DNA of 64,000 nucleotides from Minisyncoccota bacterium (lineage in GTDB: Bacteria; Patescibacteriota; Minisyncoccia; Phycocordibacterales; CAJBRS01), in NCBI GenBank assembly GCA_017881075.1, contig JADGRH010000006.1, positions 48,154 to 112,153 of the forward strand, read 5' to 3'. The notes beneath the pieces are model-generated. The model was not told where the DNA came from and made no database searches. It was given only the letters and a program-made list of their open reading frames with translations. This document shows positions 13,069-39,864 of the stretch, in pieces. The translations under genes and the position numbers were made by a program. Every line of letters begins with the position of its first letter. Positions within the stretch are counted from its first letter, which is position 1.

Positions 13069-13135
13069 CCCACAACTTTCAGAGAGACTAAGACTTGGGC
13101 AAACGCCCCGGAGTGGTCTCTCTGAAAGTTGTGGG
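13069..13135. repeat. palindromic repeat element copy 1 (27-nt conserved core flanked by 20-bp perfect inverted arms)
   Basis: Arms cccacaactttcagagagac / gtctctctgaaagttgtggg enclose core TAAGACTTGGGCAAACGCCCCGGAGTG. An outer, weaker inverted repeat ggcctaa/ttaggcc extends the structure. Intergenic between rluA-family gene and rplS. Confidence 0.65.
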
Positions 13136-14826: not shown

Positions 14827-14935
14827 TTTATTTGTGGGCGATGAGGGATTCGGTCACGAATAATTTTCTGCTGAAAATTTTCGCGACCCCGCCTCGGCGC
14901 CGACGCACCTGCGGCTTTCTCATCCCTCATCGCCT
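14823..14935 (-). repeat. tRNA-associated conserved module, copy A, fused to a 20-nt duplicate of the tRNA-Val 3' end
   Basis: 14823-14842 is an exact copy of 14991-15010, the 3' 20 nt of tRNA-Val. 14842-14885 carries the conserved hairpin ggtcacgaataattttc-tgct-gaaaattttcgcgacc plus gcgaccccgcctc, shared with 17091-17135, 29683-29731 and 33001-33050. An inner inverted repeat ggcgatgagggat/atccctcatcgcc forms a 13-bp minihelix. Confidence 0.55.
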
Positions 14936-14992
14936 CACAATGATGAATGATTGATTGCTCGAAGAGTCCCCGACTCTTCTCGCAAATCATTG

Positions 14993-15065
14993 TGGGCGAT
15001 GAGGGATTCGAACCCCCGACCTTTTCGGTGTAAACGAATTGCTCTACCAACTGAGCTAATCGCCC
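14993..15065 (-). tRNA. tRNA-Val (anticodon TAC)
   Basis: Reverse complement: acceptor GGGCGAT/ATCGCCC, D-arm GCTC-AGTTGGTA-GAGC, anticodon loop TTTACAC (TAC), T-arm GGGGG-TTCGAAT-CCCTC, discriminator A. Confidence 0.85.
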
Positions 15066-16937: not shown

Positions 16938-16998
16938 AAAAATCCAAAGAAGTCGATGCTTCATCGCACTGTCGAGTGTAAGGATTTTTTGGCTTGTG

Positions 16999-17071
16999 CT
17001 CCTGGTAGGAATCGAACCTACATTGACGGCTTAGAAGTCCGCAGTTCTATCCATTGAACTACAGGAGCATG
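16999..17071 (-). tRNA. tRNA-Arg (anticodon TCT)
   Basis: Reverse complement: acceptor GCTCCTG/CAGGAGC, anticodon loop CTTCTAA (TCT), T-arm GTAGG-TTCGATT-CCTAC. One A-G mismatch at the base of the anticodon stem. Confidence 0.8.
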
Positions 17072-17079
17072 AAAATATT

Positions 17080-17236
17080 ATACAGGAATCGGTCACACAT
17101 AATTTTCTGCTGAAAATTTGCGCGACCCCGCCTCCTCGCCTTCGCTCGTCCGGCCTTGCGCTTTGGGTCCCATCCCAAAGCTCACCTCTCATTACGGCTT
17201 AGAAGTCCGCTGTTCTATCCATTGAACTACGAGGGC
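17080..17236 (-). repeat. tRNA-associated conserved module, copy B, fused to a duplicated 5' portion (positions 1-47) of a tRNA-Arg-like sequence
   Basis: 17193-17236 (minus strand) reproduces the tRNA-Arg acceptor 5' strand variant GCCCTCG, D-arm and full TCT anticodon arm. Then a roughly 110-nt insert contains the shared hairpin (17091-17135) and ends in ..GACCGATTCCT, imitating the T-loop 3' side, 17 nt before the intact tRNA-Arg. Confidence 0.55.
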
Positions 17237-17277
17237 ATTGAATCTATAAAATAGCGCGTAACAGACATGGGCGCAAG

Positions 17278-29529: not shown

Positions 29530-29602
29530 CCGCCCGTAGCTCAGTCGGTAGAGCAGCTCCCTTTTAAGGAGATGGTCGCAGGTTCGATTCCTGCCGGGCG
29601 GA
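29530..29602 (+). tRNA. tRNA-Lys (anticodon TTT)
   Basis: Acceptor CCGCCCG/CGGGCGG, D-arm GCTC-AGTCGGTA-GAGC, anticodon loop CTTTTAA (TTT), T-arm GCAGG-TTCGATT-CCTGC, discriminator A. Confidence 0.85.
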
Positions 29603-29743
29603 CAAGAGAGAAAAATGCAAACCGCTTTGCATTTTTCGATACTTGTCCGAGCCGCAGTCATGTTGAGGCTTTGCGAGACAGACGAGGCGGGGTCGCAGAA
29701 ATTTTGCTGCAGCAAAATTATCTGTGGCGACAGTTAAAAGGAG
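29599..29743 (+). repeat. direct repeat copy 1 (attL-like): tRNA-Lys 3' end plus trailer terminator hairpin plus conserved module C
   Basis: 98 bp (29599-29696) identical to 32913-33010, with continued similarity to about 29743. Contains a terminator-like hairpin AAAAATGCAAA-ccgc-TTTGCATTTTT and the gaggcggggtcgc-hairpin module. Confidence 0.7.
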
Positions 29744-29766
29744 GAGTGTTGGTAAGCTGTTGGCAA

Positions 29767-30525
29767 CTAAATCGCTTGTTTACTAACGATAGATTTCCAT
29801 ATAATTTCAAATTGTTCGCGTTGCATTTGAACCATACTCTTGTTTTCAATCAATATAGAAATAATCGGCTCTACTATCTGCGTAATAATTAATTTATGTG
29901 GGAGGATAACCAAATTGGCTGTTAAATCAACCTCTTTCGGTAAGAAACGGACCTCCTGGTTAGTATTTTTCTCTATCTGCTTATAGTAATGAGCATCTTC
30001 ATTATCTTGCAAAATTGTTCTTATTTTTAAATCAAGTTTTGCTCTTTTCTCGATGAAATTAGTGAAATACCTTCTATCCATACTTAAAAATCTTTTCATA
30101 TCGGAGAGGATTAAATATTCATCTCCTGGTTTAAGTCCATCGAGAATTTCATCATAGACAGTTTTTACTCCCTTAATGCCTTCATAATATTTAATAAAAC
30201 TTTCTCCACTTTTTAAGCTGTGTATGGCATTGAGTTCGGGTATCATGCTTTTTAAGCGATCCTTTTTCTGTTCAATTATCCCCTCTAATCTTTCGGGCCT
30301 CTCAGCCATAAAGAGTTTTTTAAGACCTTGAACCTCAGTAGTCATTATTCCTTTATTTTTAAGTGCGTCGATGACTGTGTAAATAGTGGTACGTTTTACA
30401 CCTGATTTTTTAGCTATTTCTTGAACGGTGGACGGACCTAATGATAGGGACGCCAAATAGACCAAAGCCTCATGCTCACTTAACCCAAAATCAATCAAAA
30501 TATCGGTTAATTCGTCTTTTTTCAT
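29767..30525 (-). CDS. TrmB-family transcriptional regulator
   Basis: N-terminal HTH (LSEHEALVYLASLSLGPSTVQEIAKKSGVKRTTIYTVIDALKNKG) and a TrmB-type C-terminal domain; 252 aa. Confidence 0.75.
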   Translation of the reverse strand: MKKDELTDILIDFGLSEHEALVYLASLSLGPSTVQEIAKKSGVKRTTIYTVIDALKNKGIMTTEVQGLKKLFMAERPERLEGIIEQKKDRLKSMIPELNAIHSLKSGESFIKYYEGIKGVKTVYDEILDGLKPGDEYLILSDMKRFLSMDRRYFTNFIEKRAKLDLKIRTILQDNEDAHYYKQIEKNTNQEVRFLPKEVDLTANLVILPHKLIITQIVEPIISILIENKSMVQMQREQFEIIWKSIVSKQAI

Positions 30526-30641
30526 AAAATGTCGATTAAATCGACAACAAATATATCATATAAAATATAGATATTATTGTCAATATAGATATATTGTCGA
30601 CACATTTGACACTACTGTTAAAAATTACTATAATACTTAAT
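30526..30641. promoter_or_regulatory. divergent promoter region with palindromic operator candidates
   Basis: Perfect palindrome GTCGATTAAATCGAC (30531-30545), a TGTCGACA palindrome about 30592, and a TATAAT -10-like hexamer just upstream of the aminotransferase start. Confidence 0.4.
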
Positions 30642-31955
30642 ATGAAAAATGTCAATTCAGTAAAAGTACTTGGAGCAAACAGAGGGGTCGTAATGCTCAA
30701 TAACGCTGCAACAACAGCGCCTTTTGCGAGTACCATGCTAGAAGTAAATAATTACCTTAAAGAATACGGCGCTCTACATCGTGGGTCTGGCCCTTATGCT
30801 AATAAGACTTATGATAAGGCTATTAAGGCGCAGTCGATTATTAGGAAGTTTATTGGCGCCAAAGATGAGACATGTCTTCTCTTTACTCAAAATACAAGCA
30901 GTGCGATCAATCTCTTTGTTCGTCTGCTTAATTTAAAGAAGGTTGATGTCATTCTGACTTCTTCAATAGAACACACCTCTAATAATCTACCGTATATCTA
31001 TAACAGCAAAGCTAGAGTAATTTACATCGATACATTTAATGATGGTTCAATCGACTACGCTGATTTAGAAAAGAAAGCTTCAAAATACGCGCTTCATTTA
31101 AAGCTCATTAGCATTACAGGAGCATCAAATCTAAGCGGATATATTCCAGATATTAAAAGAGTTGCCAATATAGCTCACAGGAACAATGCTCTGTTGTTTG
31201 TCGATGCGGCTCAGCTTGCGCCTCACAGACAAATTGATATGCAGAAATCTCATATTGATGCTTTAGCGTTCTCTGCCCATAAGATTTACGCACCTTTTGG
31301 CTTAGGAGTTCTTGCTATATCAAAATCGATATTAGATAAAACTCCAGTTGAACCAGGGGGAGGCTCAATAGACATGCTAAGCAATCACGGAGTTGTTTGG
31401 GCATCAGTGCCTAATCGACACCAAACAGGCACATGGAATGTCACCGGCATCGTAGCGCTTGGGGCCAGTTGTAAACAAATCATAGACACTGGTTGGAAAA
31501 AAATTGTTCAACATGAGCGAGAGCTAGTTGAATATACAACAAAAAATCTGAAAAAGGTTCCTGGTCTAGTTATGTACATAACGCCGGAAAAGTATTTAGA
31601 GGAAGACAGAATAGGAACTTTTGTTTTTAATCTACCGAGCTATCATCATGCATTACTATCTTCAATCTTAGATCGTGAATATGGTATAGAAACTCGCGCT
31701 GGGACAATTTGTAATCATAAGCTTGTCCGACGATGGTTTAAAGTCGACGACAAAGATCAACTAAGGATTGAAAAAGAAATCAGGGAGGGTAACAAATTGG
31801 CCTCATATGGAATTGTTCGAGTCAGTCTTGGCATGCAAAATACCAAGAAGGATATAGACAAATTGGTTACGGCTCTTATCTCAATTCAGAAAAACGGCCC
31901 AAAACTAAAATACAAAGCGGCACCCAAAGAGGAGGCTTATTCGGTAATAAAATAA
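30642..31955 (+). CDS. class V aminotransferase / cysteine desulfurase-like PLP enzyme
   Basis: PLP fold-type I with LAFSAHKIYAPFGLGVL (Lys-PLP site) and VDAAQLAPH. Start moved to ATG at 30642, because the first 16 track codons overlap the operator region. Confidence 0.75.
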   Translation: MKNVNSVKVLGANRGVVMLNNAATTAPFASTMLEVNNYLKEYGALHRGSGPYANKTYDKAIKAQSIIRKFIGAKDETCLLFTQNTSSAINLFVRLLNLKKVDVILTSSIEHTSNNLPYIYNSKARVIYIDTFNDGSIDYADLEKKASKYALHLKLISITGASNLSGYIPDIKRVANIAHRNNALLFVDAAQLAPHRQIDMQKSHIDALAFSAHKIYAPFGLGVLAISKSILDKTPVEPGGGSIDMLSNHGVVWASVPNRHQTGTWNVTGIVALGASCKQIIDTGWKKIVQHERELVEYTTKNLKKVPGLVMYITPEKYLEEDRIGTFVFNLPSYHHALLSSILDREYGIETRAGTICNHKLVRRWFKVDDKDQLRIEKEIREGNKLASYGIVRVSLGMQNTKKDIDKLVTALISIQKNGPKLKYKAAPKEEAYSVIK

Positions 31956-31959
31956 ACAT

Positions 31960-32658
31960 ATGAAAACTACAAACGTTAAAGCAGATAATTTAAATTACGA
32001 TCATTATGCAACGGGGAAGTATGATGCTGATATCCGCAGGGTTATTCCCGGCCATGAGGATTTACATAAAGAAATTGAAAATTTTGTTACTGACTATACT
32101 AAATCTAACAAGATATCTAGAGTTGCTGATCTTGGTATCGGCACGGGTCTTACCTCGGAGAGAATATTAAAACTTACACCTGATGCAGAACTTATTGCCA
32201 TTGATTTCTCTGATCAAATGATAGAAGGAGCAAAGAAGAGACTTGCTTCCTATAATGTTAAGTACCGGTTTGGTGATTATTCCGAAATTAATTTTGGAGA
32301 AAATTTCGATATTGTAACTTCAGTTATTGGAATCCATCATCAAAATACTGGGGGTAAAAAGAAGGTGTTTAAGAAAGTCTATGACTCTCTAAAGAAAGGA
32401 GGAGTCTTCATGTTTGGTGATTTAGTTACCTACCGAGACAAAGAAGAAGCGGCTTACAATGATGCAAAACATTATGCCTTGATGGTAAAAAATGCTGAGG
32501 ATGAGAAATCTCTTAGGGAGTGGGCTTATCACCATAAGTTTCTCAATGATCTGGCTCCAATCGAAGACCAAATTAAATGGTTAAAAGCTGTAGGCTTCAA
32601 ACATGTCACTGTTACATTTCAGTATCTAAACACAGCTTTGATTATTGCGGAGAAATAA
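31960..32658 (+). CDS. class I SAM-dependent methyltransferase
   Basis: VADLGIGTGLTSERIL motif I and downstream acidic motif II; 232 aa. Tightly linked to the aminotransferase gene. Confidence 0.8.
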   Translation: MKTTNVKADNLNYDHYATGKYDADIRRVIPGHEDLHKEIENFVTDYTKSNKISRVADLGIGTGLTSERILKLTPDAELIAIDFSDQMIEGAKKRLASYNVKYRFGDYSEINFGENFDIVTSVIGIHHQNTGGKKKVFKKVYDSLKKGGVFMFGDLVTYRDKEEAAYNDAKHYALMVKNAEDEKSLREWAYHHKFLNDLAPIEDQIKWLKAVGFKHVTVTFQYLNTALIIAEK

Positions 32659-32912
32659 AGCAAGATAGATCCAGAATAACATTGTTAACATCTAACATAG
32701 TACATTCCTGTTCAATCATTGCGGTTCTTATATCGACTACTAGACCGGAGTAGTATTCAACTTGTGAAAGTTGTGAACATCATTCGTTTTAATAGAATGA
32801 GATCAAGTTTTTTGCTCCTCCTTCTGCAAAGCCCTAATAAACAATAGTTTGTTATACAGACCTTCCATGTAATCTCCATCTGAAAGAATGGTTATAATAT
32901 TGTGATGGTCTC

Positions 32913-33057
32913 CGGACAAGAGAGAAAAATGCAAACCGCTTTGCATTTTTCGATACTTGTCCGAGCCGCAGTCATGTTGAGGCTTTGCGAGACAGACGAG
33001 GCGGGGTCGCGGAAATTTCCGAGTTGGCGAGGAAATTATCTGTGACGACATTAAAAG
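32913..33057 (+). repeat. direct repeat copy 2 (attR-like), including conserved module D
   Basis: 98-bp perfect match to 29599-29696, starting with the last 6 nt of tRNA-Lys (cggaca). Followed by a variant of the hairpin module. Confidence 0.7.
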
Positions 33058-33133
33058 ATGCTAATTGGCTATTGCATTTCCCTCATTTTCCCGTACTATC
33101 GTCTTTAGAAAACAAAAGGGAAAGATCTATAAA

Positions 33134-34198
33134 ATGAAAATATGCGGAATTAATTTCGGCCCGATCTGGGCTATGTCTGGCGCTTTGAATTTCTTCGGCG
33201 AAGGTTACAACTACCACAAACTACTGAAAGCTCTTCTTGGTGTTCGTGTCGACGGTCTTACCTTTGTGGCAAAGACCGTTACTCTGAAATCTCGGCAAGG
33301 AAACATGCCGATGAATGAGAGAACTCTTCAACCGAAAGAGCTTTTGCCCGCCTGTATCTGGATTAATCACAGAAAAGGCATCGCTCTAAACGCAGTCGGT
33401 CTCACCAATACTGGCATCTACAACATGATGCGACGGGGAATATGGCAGCAAAGAAAAGACCCCGGATTCTTTCTTTCCTTCATGCCGGTAGGTGAAACTT
33501 CGAAAGAAAGACTGGAAGAAGCGGCTTGTTTCGTCGAAATTGTCCTACAATTTCTGCACGAATTTAAATCGAAGCGATTCGGTATACAGATCAACTTGAC
33601 TTGCCCGAACACCGGCCACAAGGCAGAGACATTAATGGCGGAAGCAAATGGAATACTGACTGCTTTTCAGCCACTTGCTGAGCGAGGTATCGTCATTGGC
33701 GTAAAATTCAGTGTAGAAATCCCGCCGGAAACGGCGGTAGAGATCGCCAATCATCCGGTTTGCGACTTTGTTCATGTGAGCAACACTGTGCCATTCAGAG
33801 CTCTCCCGGATTTGATCGACTGGGACGCCTATTTCGGTAAGGTACCGGACCATTATCTTTCCGAGCTTAAGCTAGGCATTCGAAAATGGGGAGAGTACAA
33901 AGGGCCGGGCGGCTCGCCGCTGGTCATAGAAAGAGGACTGAAACAGCCTGGCGGCCTTTCCGGAGAACCACTACGACTATTGGTCGTTAACTGGGTCAGA
34001 CAAGTTCGTGAACTTGGTTGTACCAAACCGCTCAATGCCGGAGGAGGCATTCTGCATCCGTCTCACATTGACGAGCTTCGACGTGCCGACGCAGATAGCT
34101 ATTCCATCGGTAGCATCTTCTTTCTGCGGCCTTGGGCGATAAATGCCACCATCGCCAGGGCACATGAATTGAGCCAGTACGCCAGAGGATATCGTTAA
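33134..34198 (+). CDS. dihydroorotate dehydrogenase-family (FMN TIM-barrel) protein
   Basis: GLTNTG and NLTCPNTGHK motifs resemble the class 1 dihydroorotate dehydrogenase (DHOD) signature (N.SCPN). Start set at ATG 33134 (MKICGINFGP...). Confidence 0.65.
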   Translation: MKICGINFGPIWAMSGALNFFGEGYNYHKLLKALLGVRVDGLTFVAKTVTLKSRQGNMPMNERTLQPKELLPACIWINHRKGIALNAVGLTNTGIYNMMRRGIWQQRKDPGFFLSFMPVGETSKERLEEAACFVEIVLQFLHEFKSKRFGIQINLTCPNTGHKAETLMAEANGILTAFQPLAERGIVIGVKFSVEIPPETAVEIANHPVCDFVHVSNTVPFRALPDLIDWDAYFGKVPDHYLSELKLGIRKWGEYKGPGGSPLVIERGLKQPGGLSGEPLRLLVVNWVRQVRELGCTKPLNAGGGILHPSHIDELRRADADSYSIGSIFFLRPWAINATIARAHELSQYARGYR

Positions 34199-39269: not shown

Positions 39270-39328
39270 CGAACTTTAAAACAGACCGCTCCGGGGCGCT
39301 TGCCCAAGTCTTAGTCTATTTTAAAGTT
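39270..39328. repeat. palindromic repeat element copy 2 (opposite orientation), at the tsaE 3' end / polA upstream intergenic region
   Basis: Reverse complement reads acaactttaaaatagac-TAAGACTTGGGCAAGCGCCCCGGAGCG-gtctgttttaaagtt. Core differs at two positions from copies 1 and 3. The last four tsaE codons (HTTLK) and the TAG stop lie in the right arm. Confidence 0.6.
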
Positions 39329-39864
39329 GTATGTTTCGCGCTACTATATTCTATTTCACGTGTGTTTTCGTCAATAAATTTAAAATAAACTTTATGAAAG
39401 TTTTCCGGCATAGCGCTCGCTACATTTTCCGGCCACTCTATTAAAACAAGATTATTCGGATCTGCAAGCACTTCGGCAAAGTTCAACTTCATTAATTCTT
39501 CACCGTTTTTTAGACGGTAAGCGTCTATGTGAATGAGTCTTTCAAAAGACGAGGTGGGGCGATCGGAACCAGCCATTTTAGAGACTAAGACTTGGGCAAA
39601 CGCCCCGGAGTGGTCTCTAAAATGGCTGGTTCCGGGAGCTTCCACCTCATATCTTTTCATAATCACAAACGTGGGGCTGGTGATAATCTCTTTGATTCCC
39701 ACAAGCCTCCCTATCGCCTGAACAAAGGTAGTTTTTCCGGCACCCAAGTCGCCAAAGAGTCCCGCGACTTGGGCGCCTTTTCCTACTTTATTTTCACTCA
39801 AAAAATCTAAAAAATCCTTGGCGGCCTCTTCTGTCTCGGCCAAACTTTTACTTACCCTCTTCAT
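39316..39864 (-). CDS. tsaE: tRNA threonylcarbamoyladenosine biosynthesis ATPase TsaE (YjeE), with about 31-aa in-frame insertion
   Basis: GDLGAGKTTF Walker A, SPTF and HIDAYRL motifs. The segment GTSHFRDHSGAFAQVLVSKMAGSDRPTSSFE between them is encoded by palindromic element copy 3. Confidence 0.8.
   Translation of the reverse strand: MKRVSKSLAETEEAAKDFLDFLSENKVGKGAQVAGLFGDLGAGKTTFVQAIGRLVGIKEIITSPTFVIMKRYEVEAPGTSHFRDHSGAFAQVLVSKMAGSDRPTSSFERLIHIDAYRLKNGEELMKLNFAEVLADPNNLVLIEWPENVASAMPENFHKVYFKFIDENTREIEYSSAKHTTLK
39563..39634. repeat. palindromic repeat element copy 3, inserted in-frame inside tsaE
   Basis: 22-bp perfect arms cggaaccagccattttagagac / gtctctaaaatggctggttccg flank core TAAGACTTGGGCAAACGCCCCGGAGTG, identical to copy 1. 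No stop codon in the tsaE frame. Confidence 0.65.

Follow-up and report, generated by a model that had tools for sequence, protein, structure and literature searches.

Why should a three-gene cassette be bracketed by two perfect direct repeats, the first of which begins inside the 3' end of a transfer RNA (tRNA) gene? The question is raised by a stretch of 64,000 nucleotides (nt), hereafter the window, from Minisyncoccota bacterium contig JADGRH010000006.1 (GCA_017881075.1; positions 48,154-112,153, forward strand). The original prediction took the repeats for the attL/attR-like ends of an islet integrated at tRNA-Lys, i.e., a decayed island or a cassette mobilised by recombination between tRNA-trailer modules. 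Here, the repeats were recognized as copies of a multicopy three-hairpin element, named E. With moderate confidence, they are considered to be paralogous E copies that bracket a resident operon, and not the recombination scars of an island.

The repeat pair as copies of element E

E is a sense-strand unit of three hairpins with a length of ~70-190 nt, or ~145 nt in the two repeats here. The unit is composed of a copy-specific hairpin (P1), the junction J1 (AGCCGCAG), a second hairpin (P2), the junction J2 (GAGGCGG), and a long bulged hairpin (P3; GGTCGC...AAATTT...AAATT-AT-...GTGAC) that ends in GTGAC. Its tail is short and conserved, i.e., GACA(N)TTAAAAG. A covariance model (R1) was made from an alignment of 100 E copies (A2). 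The tRNA gene and the two copies at the cassette, E_L and E_R, are as follows.

29530-29602, plus strand: tRNA-Lys(ttt), found by ARAGORN and by Rfam (tRNA, 71.8 bits); its last 4 nt, CGGA (29599-29602), start the 5' strand of P1 in E_L.
29599-29742, plus strand: left element copy E_L, assigned from sequence, pair alignment, fold (z = -3.3) and a covariance-model hit at 29648-29730 (59.9 bits, E-value 1e-11). P1, CGGACAAG (29599-29606) paired with CTTGTCCG (29642-29649), closes a terminator-like hairpin at 29610-29637; J1 is AGCCGCAG (29650-29657), P2 lies at 29658-29683, J2 is GAGGCGG (29684-29690), P3 (29691-29728) is of the short-tip type, and the conserved tail is GACAGTTAAAAGGA.
32913-33058, plus strand: right element copy E_R (fold z = -4.0; covariance-model hit at 32962-33048, 65.2 bits, E-value 8e-13). 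P1, J1, P2 and J2 are the same as in E_L; P3 (33005-33046) is of the long-tip type, and the tail is GACATTAAAAGA.

The 98-nt blocks at 29599-29696 and 32913-33010 were identical by alignment and in direct orientation, as had been claimed. A 50-nt sub-pattern of the repeat gave two matches, compared with none in 100 shuffles. The repeat match was 106 nt at 99%, and in the gapped pair alignment the similarity was traceable to ~29742/33058, with indels only within one hairpin, whose stem is maintained by compensatory changes. The repeats start at the base of P1 (29599 and 32913), and the exact 98 nt end at the 5' foot of P3. E_L and E_R thus show no difference from P1 to J2, then ~90% identity and a P3 tip that is built differently, still paired. 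Past nt 98, the left copy reads AAATTTTG-CTGCA-GCAAAATT and the right copy AAATTTCC-GAGTTGGCGA-GGAAATT. Perfect identity over 98 nt, followed by ~10% divergence and a rebuilt tip, is a recombination mosaic.

The 3' end of tRNA-Lys(ttt) was placed at 29602 by Rfam and at 29603 by ARAGORN. The overlap of repeat and tRNA seen in the original prediction exists, but it amounts to 4-5 nt (CGGA or CGGAC) and not to the last 6 nt. No second copy of the tRNA-Lys 3' end was found within the window at up to three mismatches. The attL/attR-like geometry was not upheld, since the repeat holds 4 nt of the tRNA, no tRNA-Lys end is displaced, and the repeat is a complete E copy. Nor can the second repeat be taken as the trailer of a lost tRNA, because no tRNA-like sequence was found before E_R, even at an E-value threshold of 10. 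The trailer terminator hairpin was confirmed in both repeats (29610-29637 and 32924-32951). The conserved module was confirmed as well; its core recurs on the minus strand after tRNA-Val (14851-14918) and after a tRNA-Arg fragment (17090-17157). The idea of a tRNA-trailer module is supported and much enlarged.

E_R keeps the P1 of tRNA-Lys type, including CGGA, and no tRNA or remnant stands before it; therefore, E_R probably descends from an E copy that was linked to tRNA-Lys. The most economical history is local copying with partial conversion. E would have been copied locally to the far side of the resident operon, and partial gene conversion would have followed. Equivalently, an older paralogue would have been overwritten by conversion across its 5' 98 nt.

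By the covariance model, there are exactly four element copies in the window. The other two are as follows.

14833-14990, minus strand: element copy after tRNA-Val(tac) (14992-15065), with a covariance-model hit at 14851-14918 (79.2 bits); behind it stand a second copy of the tRNA-Val 3' end, 20-21 nt long (CGAATCCCTCATCGCCCACA, 14833-14852), and, after that, an intrinsic terminator.
17085-17238, minus strand: 5' fragment of tRNA-Arg(tct) (17194-17238) with a long-form element copy at the T-loop position (covariance-model hit at 17090-17157, 73.6 bits). The fragment has 45 nt, is 91% identical to the real gene as a direct repeat, and lies in a weak Rfam tRNA hit (17137-17236).

In the latter region (16996-17238, minus strand), the element gives way to 8 nt left over from the T-loop, then to a TATAAT box and the intact tRNA-Arg(tct) (16996-17068). 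A second small repeat was also seen in the window. The 39-nt AGAGACTAAGACTTGGGCAAACGCCCCGGAGTGGTCTCT is perfectly duplicated at 13083-13121 and 39580-39618, each copy being the tip of a different, copy-specific hairpin of ~28-30 bp. The copy at 39580-39618 lies in frame within the TsaE open reading frame (ORF; 39319-39864, minus strand), where the Pfam match is split in two.

The operon and its neighbourhood

The cassette and its flank contain the following features. Loci in other genomes are cited by L numbers.

29767-30525, minus strand: TrmB-like helix-turn-helix regulator of 252 amino acids (aa), Pfam TrmB 1e-14, with 85-88% identity to its homologues in L123 and L126.
30526-30641, no strand: divergent promoter region with palindromes (TGTCGATTTAATCGACA and others) and consensus promoter matches of 12/12 and 11/12, both strands.
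30642-31955, plus strand: class V aminotransferase-fold protein of the SufS-like cysteine desulfurase family, 437 aa (Pfam Aminotran_5 5e-78; NCBIfam sufS 252 bits, below the family cutoff).
31960-32658, plus strand: S-adenosylmethionine (SAM)-dependent methyltransferase, 232 aa (Pfam Methyltransf_25 7.5e-18), with a weak full-length resemblance to CmoA (NCBIfam 63.6 bits, below cutoff).
32659-32912, no strand: 254-nt spacer without a homologue at other cassette loci, homology to L123-L128 stopping at 32658/32659; it has a TATAAT box ~20 nt upstream of E_R.
33134-34198, plus strand: DHO_dh-like TIM-barrel protein of 354 aa, downstream of E_R and outside the cassette (Pfam DHO_dh 3e-7; best homologue 47-48% identical); its start lies 75 nt after E_R.

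Pfam matches bore out the earlier gene calls, i.e., TrmB family, class V aminotransferase and SAM methyltransferase, and palindromes were found at 30526-30641. The aminotransferase and methyltransferase genes had been called divergent. These two are co-directional, and the TrmB-like gene alone is divergent.

The TrmB-like, SufS-like and methyltransferase genes are a conserved Patescibacteria operon. The cassette recurs as a unit in other members of the group, in at least three unrelated neighbourhoods, i.e., between HU and RNase Y (L123), between NUDIX and a 281-aa protein with PolA (L126), and after RuvC (L127). Nucleotide homology to the other cassette loci covers 29789-32658 only, with 74% at the DNA level. 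No E copy was found within 6 kb of the cassette at these three contexts. Mobilisation of the cassette by recombination between modules thus found no support elsewhere, but it may have occurred at this locus; the 98 nt of direct identity should permit RecA-mediated loop-out of the operon.

L126, from a distant relative, bears on residency through its gene order. There, tRNA-Lys(ttt) (95% identical over 76 nt) is followed by two genes, the cassette, the 281-aa protein, PolA, TsaE and T2SSE. The window has tRNA-Lys, E, the cassette, E, the DHO_dh-like protein, a PKD protein, proteins of 221 and 137 aa, PolA, TsaE and T2SSE. L126 has neither E nor an att-like repeat. Because the same interval, tRNA-Lys(ttt) to polA-tsaE, holds the operon without E, the operon was probably bracketed by the repeats and not delivered with them, i.e., it would have been resident when the E copies came to flank it.

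The original prediction had named the same genes without repeats in all relatives as evidence that would speak against an islet; such an arrangement was seen in part, in L126 alone. The unoccupied tRNA-Lys site that it proposed to look for did not appear at strain level, and in L126 the site is occupied by the same three genes without repeats. A metagenome scan with the Lys-type P1/J1 pattern gave two distant loci only. Relatives were also sought through the DHO_dh-like protein among genome contigs, and none was found; its closest homologues that were inspected (42-47% identical) stood in unrelated contexts without E or tRNA-Lys.

Several points weigh against a resident operon that was bracketed by local copying. 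The cassette is far closer to its homologues (67-88%) than the syntenic backbone is (27-52%). For the cassette, the identities are 85-88% for the TrmB-like protein, 74-75% for the aminotransferase and 67-72% for the methyltransferase; for the backbone, they are 27% for the 221/281-aa protein, 40% for TsaE, 50-52% for PolA and 52% for T2SSE. The guanine-cytosine (GC) content is deviant, i.e., 36.2% for the cassette compared with a window mean of 41.3%, within the lowest 3% of 3-kb windows. Such similarity and low GC are as compatible with slow evolution as with a recent horizontal arrival. L126 is the one syntenic relative that came to light, and there two additional genes separate the cassette from the tRNA. 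Moreover, a whole element copied recently should match along its full length; the divergence of P3 and tail calls for a further event, i.e., conversion or recombination. Nor has a mechanism or enzyme that copies E been recognized. Finally, the Logan k=31 unitigs of SRR10489828 break exactly at the repeat edges, and in that graph an integrated cassette looks the same as an empty site with a separate circle. Taken together, the position in L126 argues for residency, and the similarity and GC leave room for horizontal replacement.

Homologues of the SufS-like protein (30642-31955) with 58-64% identity are annotated in Diapherotrites (DPANN archaea) and also occur throughout Patescibacteria. Judged from these sequences, exchange of the SufS-like gene or of the operon between domains is hinted at, and the aminotransferase gene may be either slowly evolving or widely exchanged.

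The main rival to a resident operon is a Campbell-type acquisition, which is considered unlikely. A circular or permuted DNA with one E and the three genes, from another Patescibacterium, would have recombined with the E linked to tRNA-Lys. The product would be E-cassette-E, with the crossover within the 98-nt identical block. Such an event would account for the direct repeats and for their abrupt mosaic boundary at nt 98. It would also agree with a low-GC cassette that is much closer to distant genomes than the backbone is, that occurs in at least three unrelated neighbourhoods, and that has close archaeal homologues in Diapherotrites. However, the incoming E must already have had a P1 of tRNA-Lys type, identical over 98 nt, and yet a different P3. 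L126 has the cassette in the same interval without any E, the other cassette loci lack E within 6 kb as well, and the first E-cassette-E unit would still require a duplication of E.

That the repeats are attL and attR of a decayed integrase-type islet at tRNA-Lys, whose integrase gene was lost, is very unlikely. Direct repeats that start at a tRNA 3' end, low GC, and a regulator with metabolic cargo would all suit such an islet. Against this, the repeat shares only 4 nt with the tRNA, no 3' end is displaced, an entire multicopy element makes up the repeat and also occurs where nothing was inserted, and the syntenic relative L126 lacks repeats. In agreement with the original prediction, neither the cassette nor its flanks gave any integrase remnant. 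No recombinase was recognized in Pfam and NCBIfam scans among all ORFs of 26.8-36.4 kb, i.e., RuvA, Fpg, SpoU, a membrane protein, TrmB, the aminotransferase, the methyltransferase, the DHO_dh-like protein, the PKD protein and unknowns. The Pfam scan of 68 window ORFs gives the 25 commonest families, which does not exclude a recombinase elsewhere in the window. The decayed-islet reading is already largely refuted.

An assembly artefact is also unlikely, to a still greater degree than the islet. The cassette would then be a separate, e.g., circular, molecule or a segment from elsewhere that was threaded through the collapsed 98-nt repeat. The k=31 unitigs do stop at the repeat edges, and the graph topology permits both resolutions. 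However, a 3.3-kb circle without a replication gene is implausible. Differences between the copies start right after nt 98, which lets longer k-mers or read pairs resolve the paths, and the order of tRNA-Lys, cassette and polA recurs in an independent assembly (L126). A resident operon between two paralogous E copies is the favoured explanation.

Fold, distribution and meaning of E

The consensus of the A2 alignment has five covarying pairs. On this structure, 98.9% of cells were paired (shuffled, 88.4%), 181 cells were double changes (shuffled, 46), and the covariation score was 0.323 (shuffled, 0.115; slid controls, at most 0.10). Because the A2 copies were chosen by an exact pattern, the core columns are invariant by construction and the signal comes from the flanking stems only. 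One G.U pair was invariant in all 100 sequences, and a second position was G.U or G-C; these pairs indicate that the strand that folds runs in the direction of the tRNA. For the segment before J1, the duplex with the upstream sequence of the same copy was far stronger than duplexes with the upstream sequences of other copies (-18.3 vs -12.8 kcal/mol, p 8e-21), so P1 is copy-specific. This segment also pairs, more weakly, with its own downstream flank (p 2e-7). P1 usually starts 2-4 nt within the tRNA 3' end. The closing stem of E differs in every copy and is made of neighbouring sequence.

A species-representative genome collection was scanned with a 19-base core pattern (GAGGCGGGGTCGCNNAAATTT). 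It was found in at least 120 stretches, nearly all from Patescibacteria, including Saccharibacteria, Paceibacterota, Kaiser-, Adler- and Nomurabacteria and others. The ~70-nt core is conserved near base for base from Saccharibacteria to Paceibacterota, and the covariance model detected 135 E copies in 703 kb of related loci. For 76 of 125 copies, a same-strand tRNA of any isotype ends less than 200 nt upstream of the core. A transfer-messenger RNA (L041) likewise has an E copy after it. In Saccharibacteria (L094/L130), a tRNA-Lys has the same P1 and tail as the window copies.

In about half of the copies (52/106), when a segment ending at the 3' end of E is deleted, the sequence restores a tRNA equal to the intact one next to it. 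Behind E there is thus a displaced tRNA 3' end that begins at T-loop C56. This duplicate spans C56 to just past the discriminator, and the tRNA itself is intact. At other tRNA-linked copies, only ~4 nt recur (CACA, GACA). The duplications at E range from ~4 to ~20 nt and exceed 30 nt in L006, where a duplicated gene start was seen on both sides of E. With an intact tRNA and a displaced end after about half of its copies, E looks like a small insertional element aimed at tRNA 3' ends.

A tRNA intron, self-splicing or enzyme-spliced, was rejected as an explanation; the rebuilt tRNA is always that of the intact neighbour, no credible sole interrupted tRNA occurs among the 106 copies, and the copies beside 5S ribosomal RNA lie in antisense orientation. 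The known group I introns of Patescibacteria tRNAs are anticodon-loop introns, unrelated to E. As for an autonomous parent, the E core is absent from IMG/VR, INPHARED phages and PLSDB plasmids, and no protein family was enriched beside E among 120 loci. No Rfam 15 family matched either repeat copy at an E-value threshold of 10, or E in 22 related loci. The best Rfam match, RAGATH-16, was dismissed at 17 bits (gathering threshold 65.6) with an alignment that was unconvincing on inspection. A literature search, including the core sequence as text, gave nothing describing E, and Acido-Lenti-1, a possible analogue, and its literature added nothing on E.

Several single loci are informative on the behaviour of E. 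In L080 (1736-2995), from a metagenome-assembled genome of Saccharibacteria, tRNA-Ser(cga) and tRNA-Ser(tga) lie 1 kb apart and have E interiors identical over ~130 nt, each then followed by a duplicate of its own, differing tRNA 3' end. This pair is the clearest sign of copying or conversion between E copies. Neighbouring copies elsewhere are 77-90% identical, and with the identical pair of L080 they indicate that exchange between neighbouring E copies does occur. In L129 (1290-1680, minus strand), behind a tRNA-Ile(tat) with a 3' end matching tRNA-Lys, a Lys-type 5' part (P1-J1-P2-GAGGCGGG) continues into another structured 3' part (TGAG-hairpin-CGCAAG...). The switch falls at the point where identity between the two window copies ends, and a modular breakpoint between J2 and P3 is suggested. 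Decayed tandem copies behind one tRNA were seen in L008 and L062. In L039 (5435-5700, minus strand), a long-form E was found: tRNA-His is followed by a terminator, an inverted copy of the last ~29 nt of the tRNA, and a direct copy of the tRNA-His end with E inserted at the T-loop position, in a multi-helix junction with conserved linkers GTGAG and CGCAAG. In four unrelated genomes (L003, L025, L027, L033), E lies 60-240 nt downstream of 5S ribosomal RNA (rRNA) in antisense, i.e., convergent, orientation, and in L003 a partial second 5S copy seems to be interrupted by it. In L004 (3442-3507), E runs in frame, as 30 stop-free codons, through the UvrC gene between the GIY-YIG domain and the UVR motif.

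It could be asked whether E moves at all. E might be a vertically inherited cis-acting RNA domain of tRNA precursors, with a role in 3' processing, stability, termination or protein binding; E_R would then have been recruited as the 5' leader of the DHO_dh-like gene, and the identity of the repeats would reflect selection and conversion. The sense orientation, the invariant G.U pair and the phylum-wide conserved junction bases agree with such a role. So do the Val copy between its tRNA and terminator, the TATAAT box before E_R, the 75 nt from E_R to a start codon, and the absence of E from viral contigs, phages and plasmids (IMG/VR, INPHARED, PLSDB). A non-mobile E is nevertheless improbable in view of the displaced tRNA 3' ends after about half of the copies, the decayed tandem copies, the orthologous tRNA-Lys genes that differ in the presence of E (window and L126), the in-frame copy in uvrC, the antisense copies downstream of 5S rRNA, and the identical interiors at two different tRNA-Ser genes.

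As a tentative proposal, E may represent an undescribed Patescibacteria-specific class, i.e., a strand-specific three-helix unit that is inserted at or copied to tRNA 3' ends, at T-loop position 56 or just past the discriminator, with the tRNA preserved and no element-encoded protein; or it may be a new cis-acting RNA module of tRNA precursors that turned mobile. The copy-specific stem, which is complementary to the target 3' end, may be a guide or a record of the previous target.

For this locus, the favoured explanation is deflating, i.e., no cryptic island or new integration system, just an operon between two repeat copies. E itself is the interesting object, with several copies per genome that are tied to tRNA 3' ends. 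As an RNA, E would be a common and so far uncharacterised part of tRNA transcripts, in a phylum whose RNA-processing machinery is minimal. As mobile DNA, it would be a protein-less tRNA-targeting insertion system in genomes that are regarded as poor in mobile elements. In practice, E copies break short-k assemblies, yield spurious ORFs and duplicated tRNA fragments, and offer portable homology for deletions and rearrangements.

Comparison with known systems

Integrases that insert DNA into tRNA genes leave attL and attR with a displaced tRNA 3' end. Many E copies resemble this, since an intact tRNA and a duplicate 3' end after the insert were found, and decayed copies pile up behind one tRNA. 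However, the E insert has ~100-190 nt, no integrase is carried or enriched nearby, and E is absent from viral and plasmid collections. At the tRNA-Lys of the window, moreover, only 4 nt are shared and no end is displaced. An integron cassette with attC was also considered and rejected, since there is no integrase, the three genes have their own divergent promoters, and most E copies have no cargo between them.

Rickettsia palindromic elements (RPE), miniature inverted-repeat transposable elements (MITE) and Correia elements are short, multicopy, strongly folding repeats without ORFs. E is likewise multicopy, ORF-less, shorter than 300 nt, dispersed and mostly intergenic, with one in-frame copy in a protein gene (UvrC, L004). 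Unlike them, E has no terminal inverted repeats of its own and no fixed short target duplication. Its closing hairpin is copy-specific, its conservation is phylum-wide and near base for base, and it prefers tRNA 3' ends.

Repetitive extragenic palindromic (REP) sequences and the related BIME and REPIN elements are mobilised by RAYT transposases, and REPs are species-specific with 20-40 nt. E shares with them the form of extragenic imperfect palindromes with bulged bases, multiple copies, and a frequent place at the 3' ends of transcription units. However, E is a three-helix unit with conserved junctions, and no RAYT-like or other protein is associated with it.

Orphan structured RNA motifs, filed in Rfam as genes of small RNA (sRNA), are similar to E in a covariation-supported fold, strand-specific G.U pairs and conserved junction nucleotides. 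Unlike ordinary sRNA genes, E has insertion-like target duplications, and no Rfam 15 family matches it. Compared with att sites, small repeats (RPE, REP, MITE) and orphan RNA motifs, E shares features with each and belongs fully to none. It is filed here among the small structured repeat or insertion elements.

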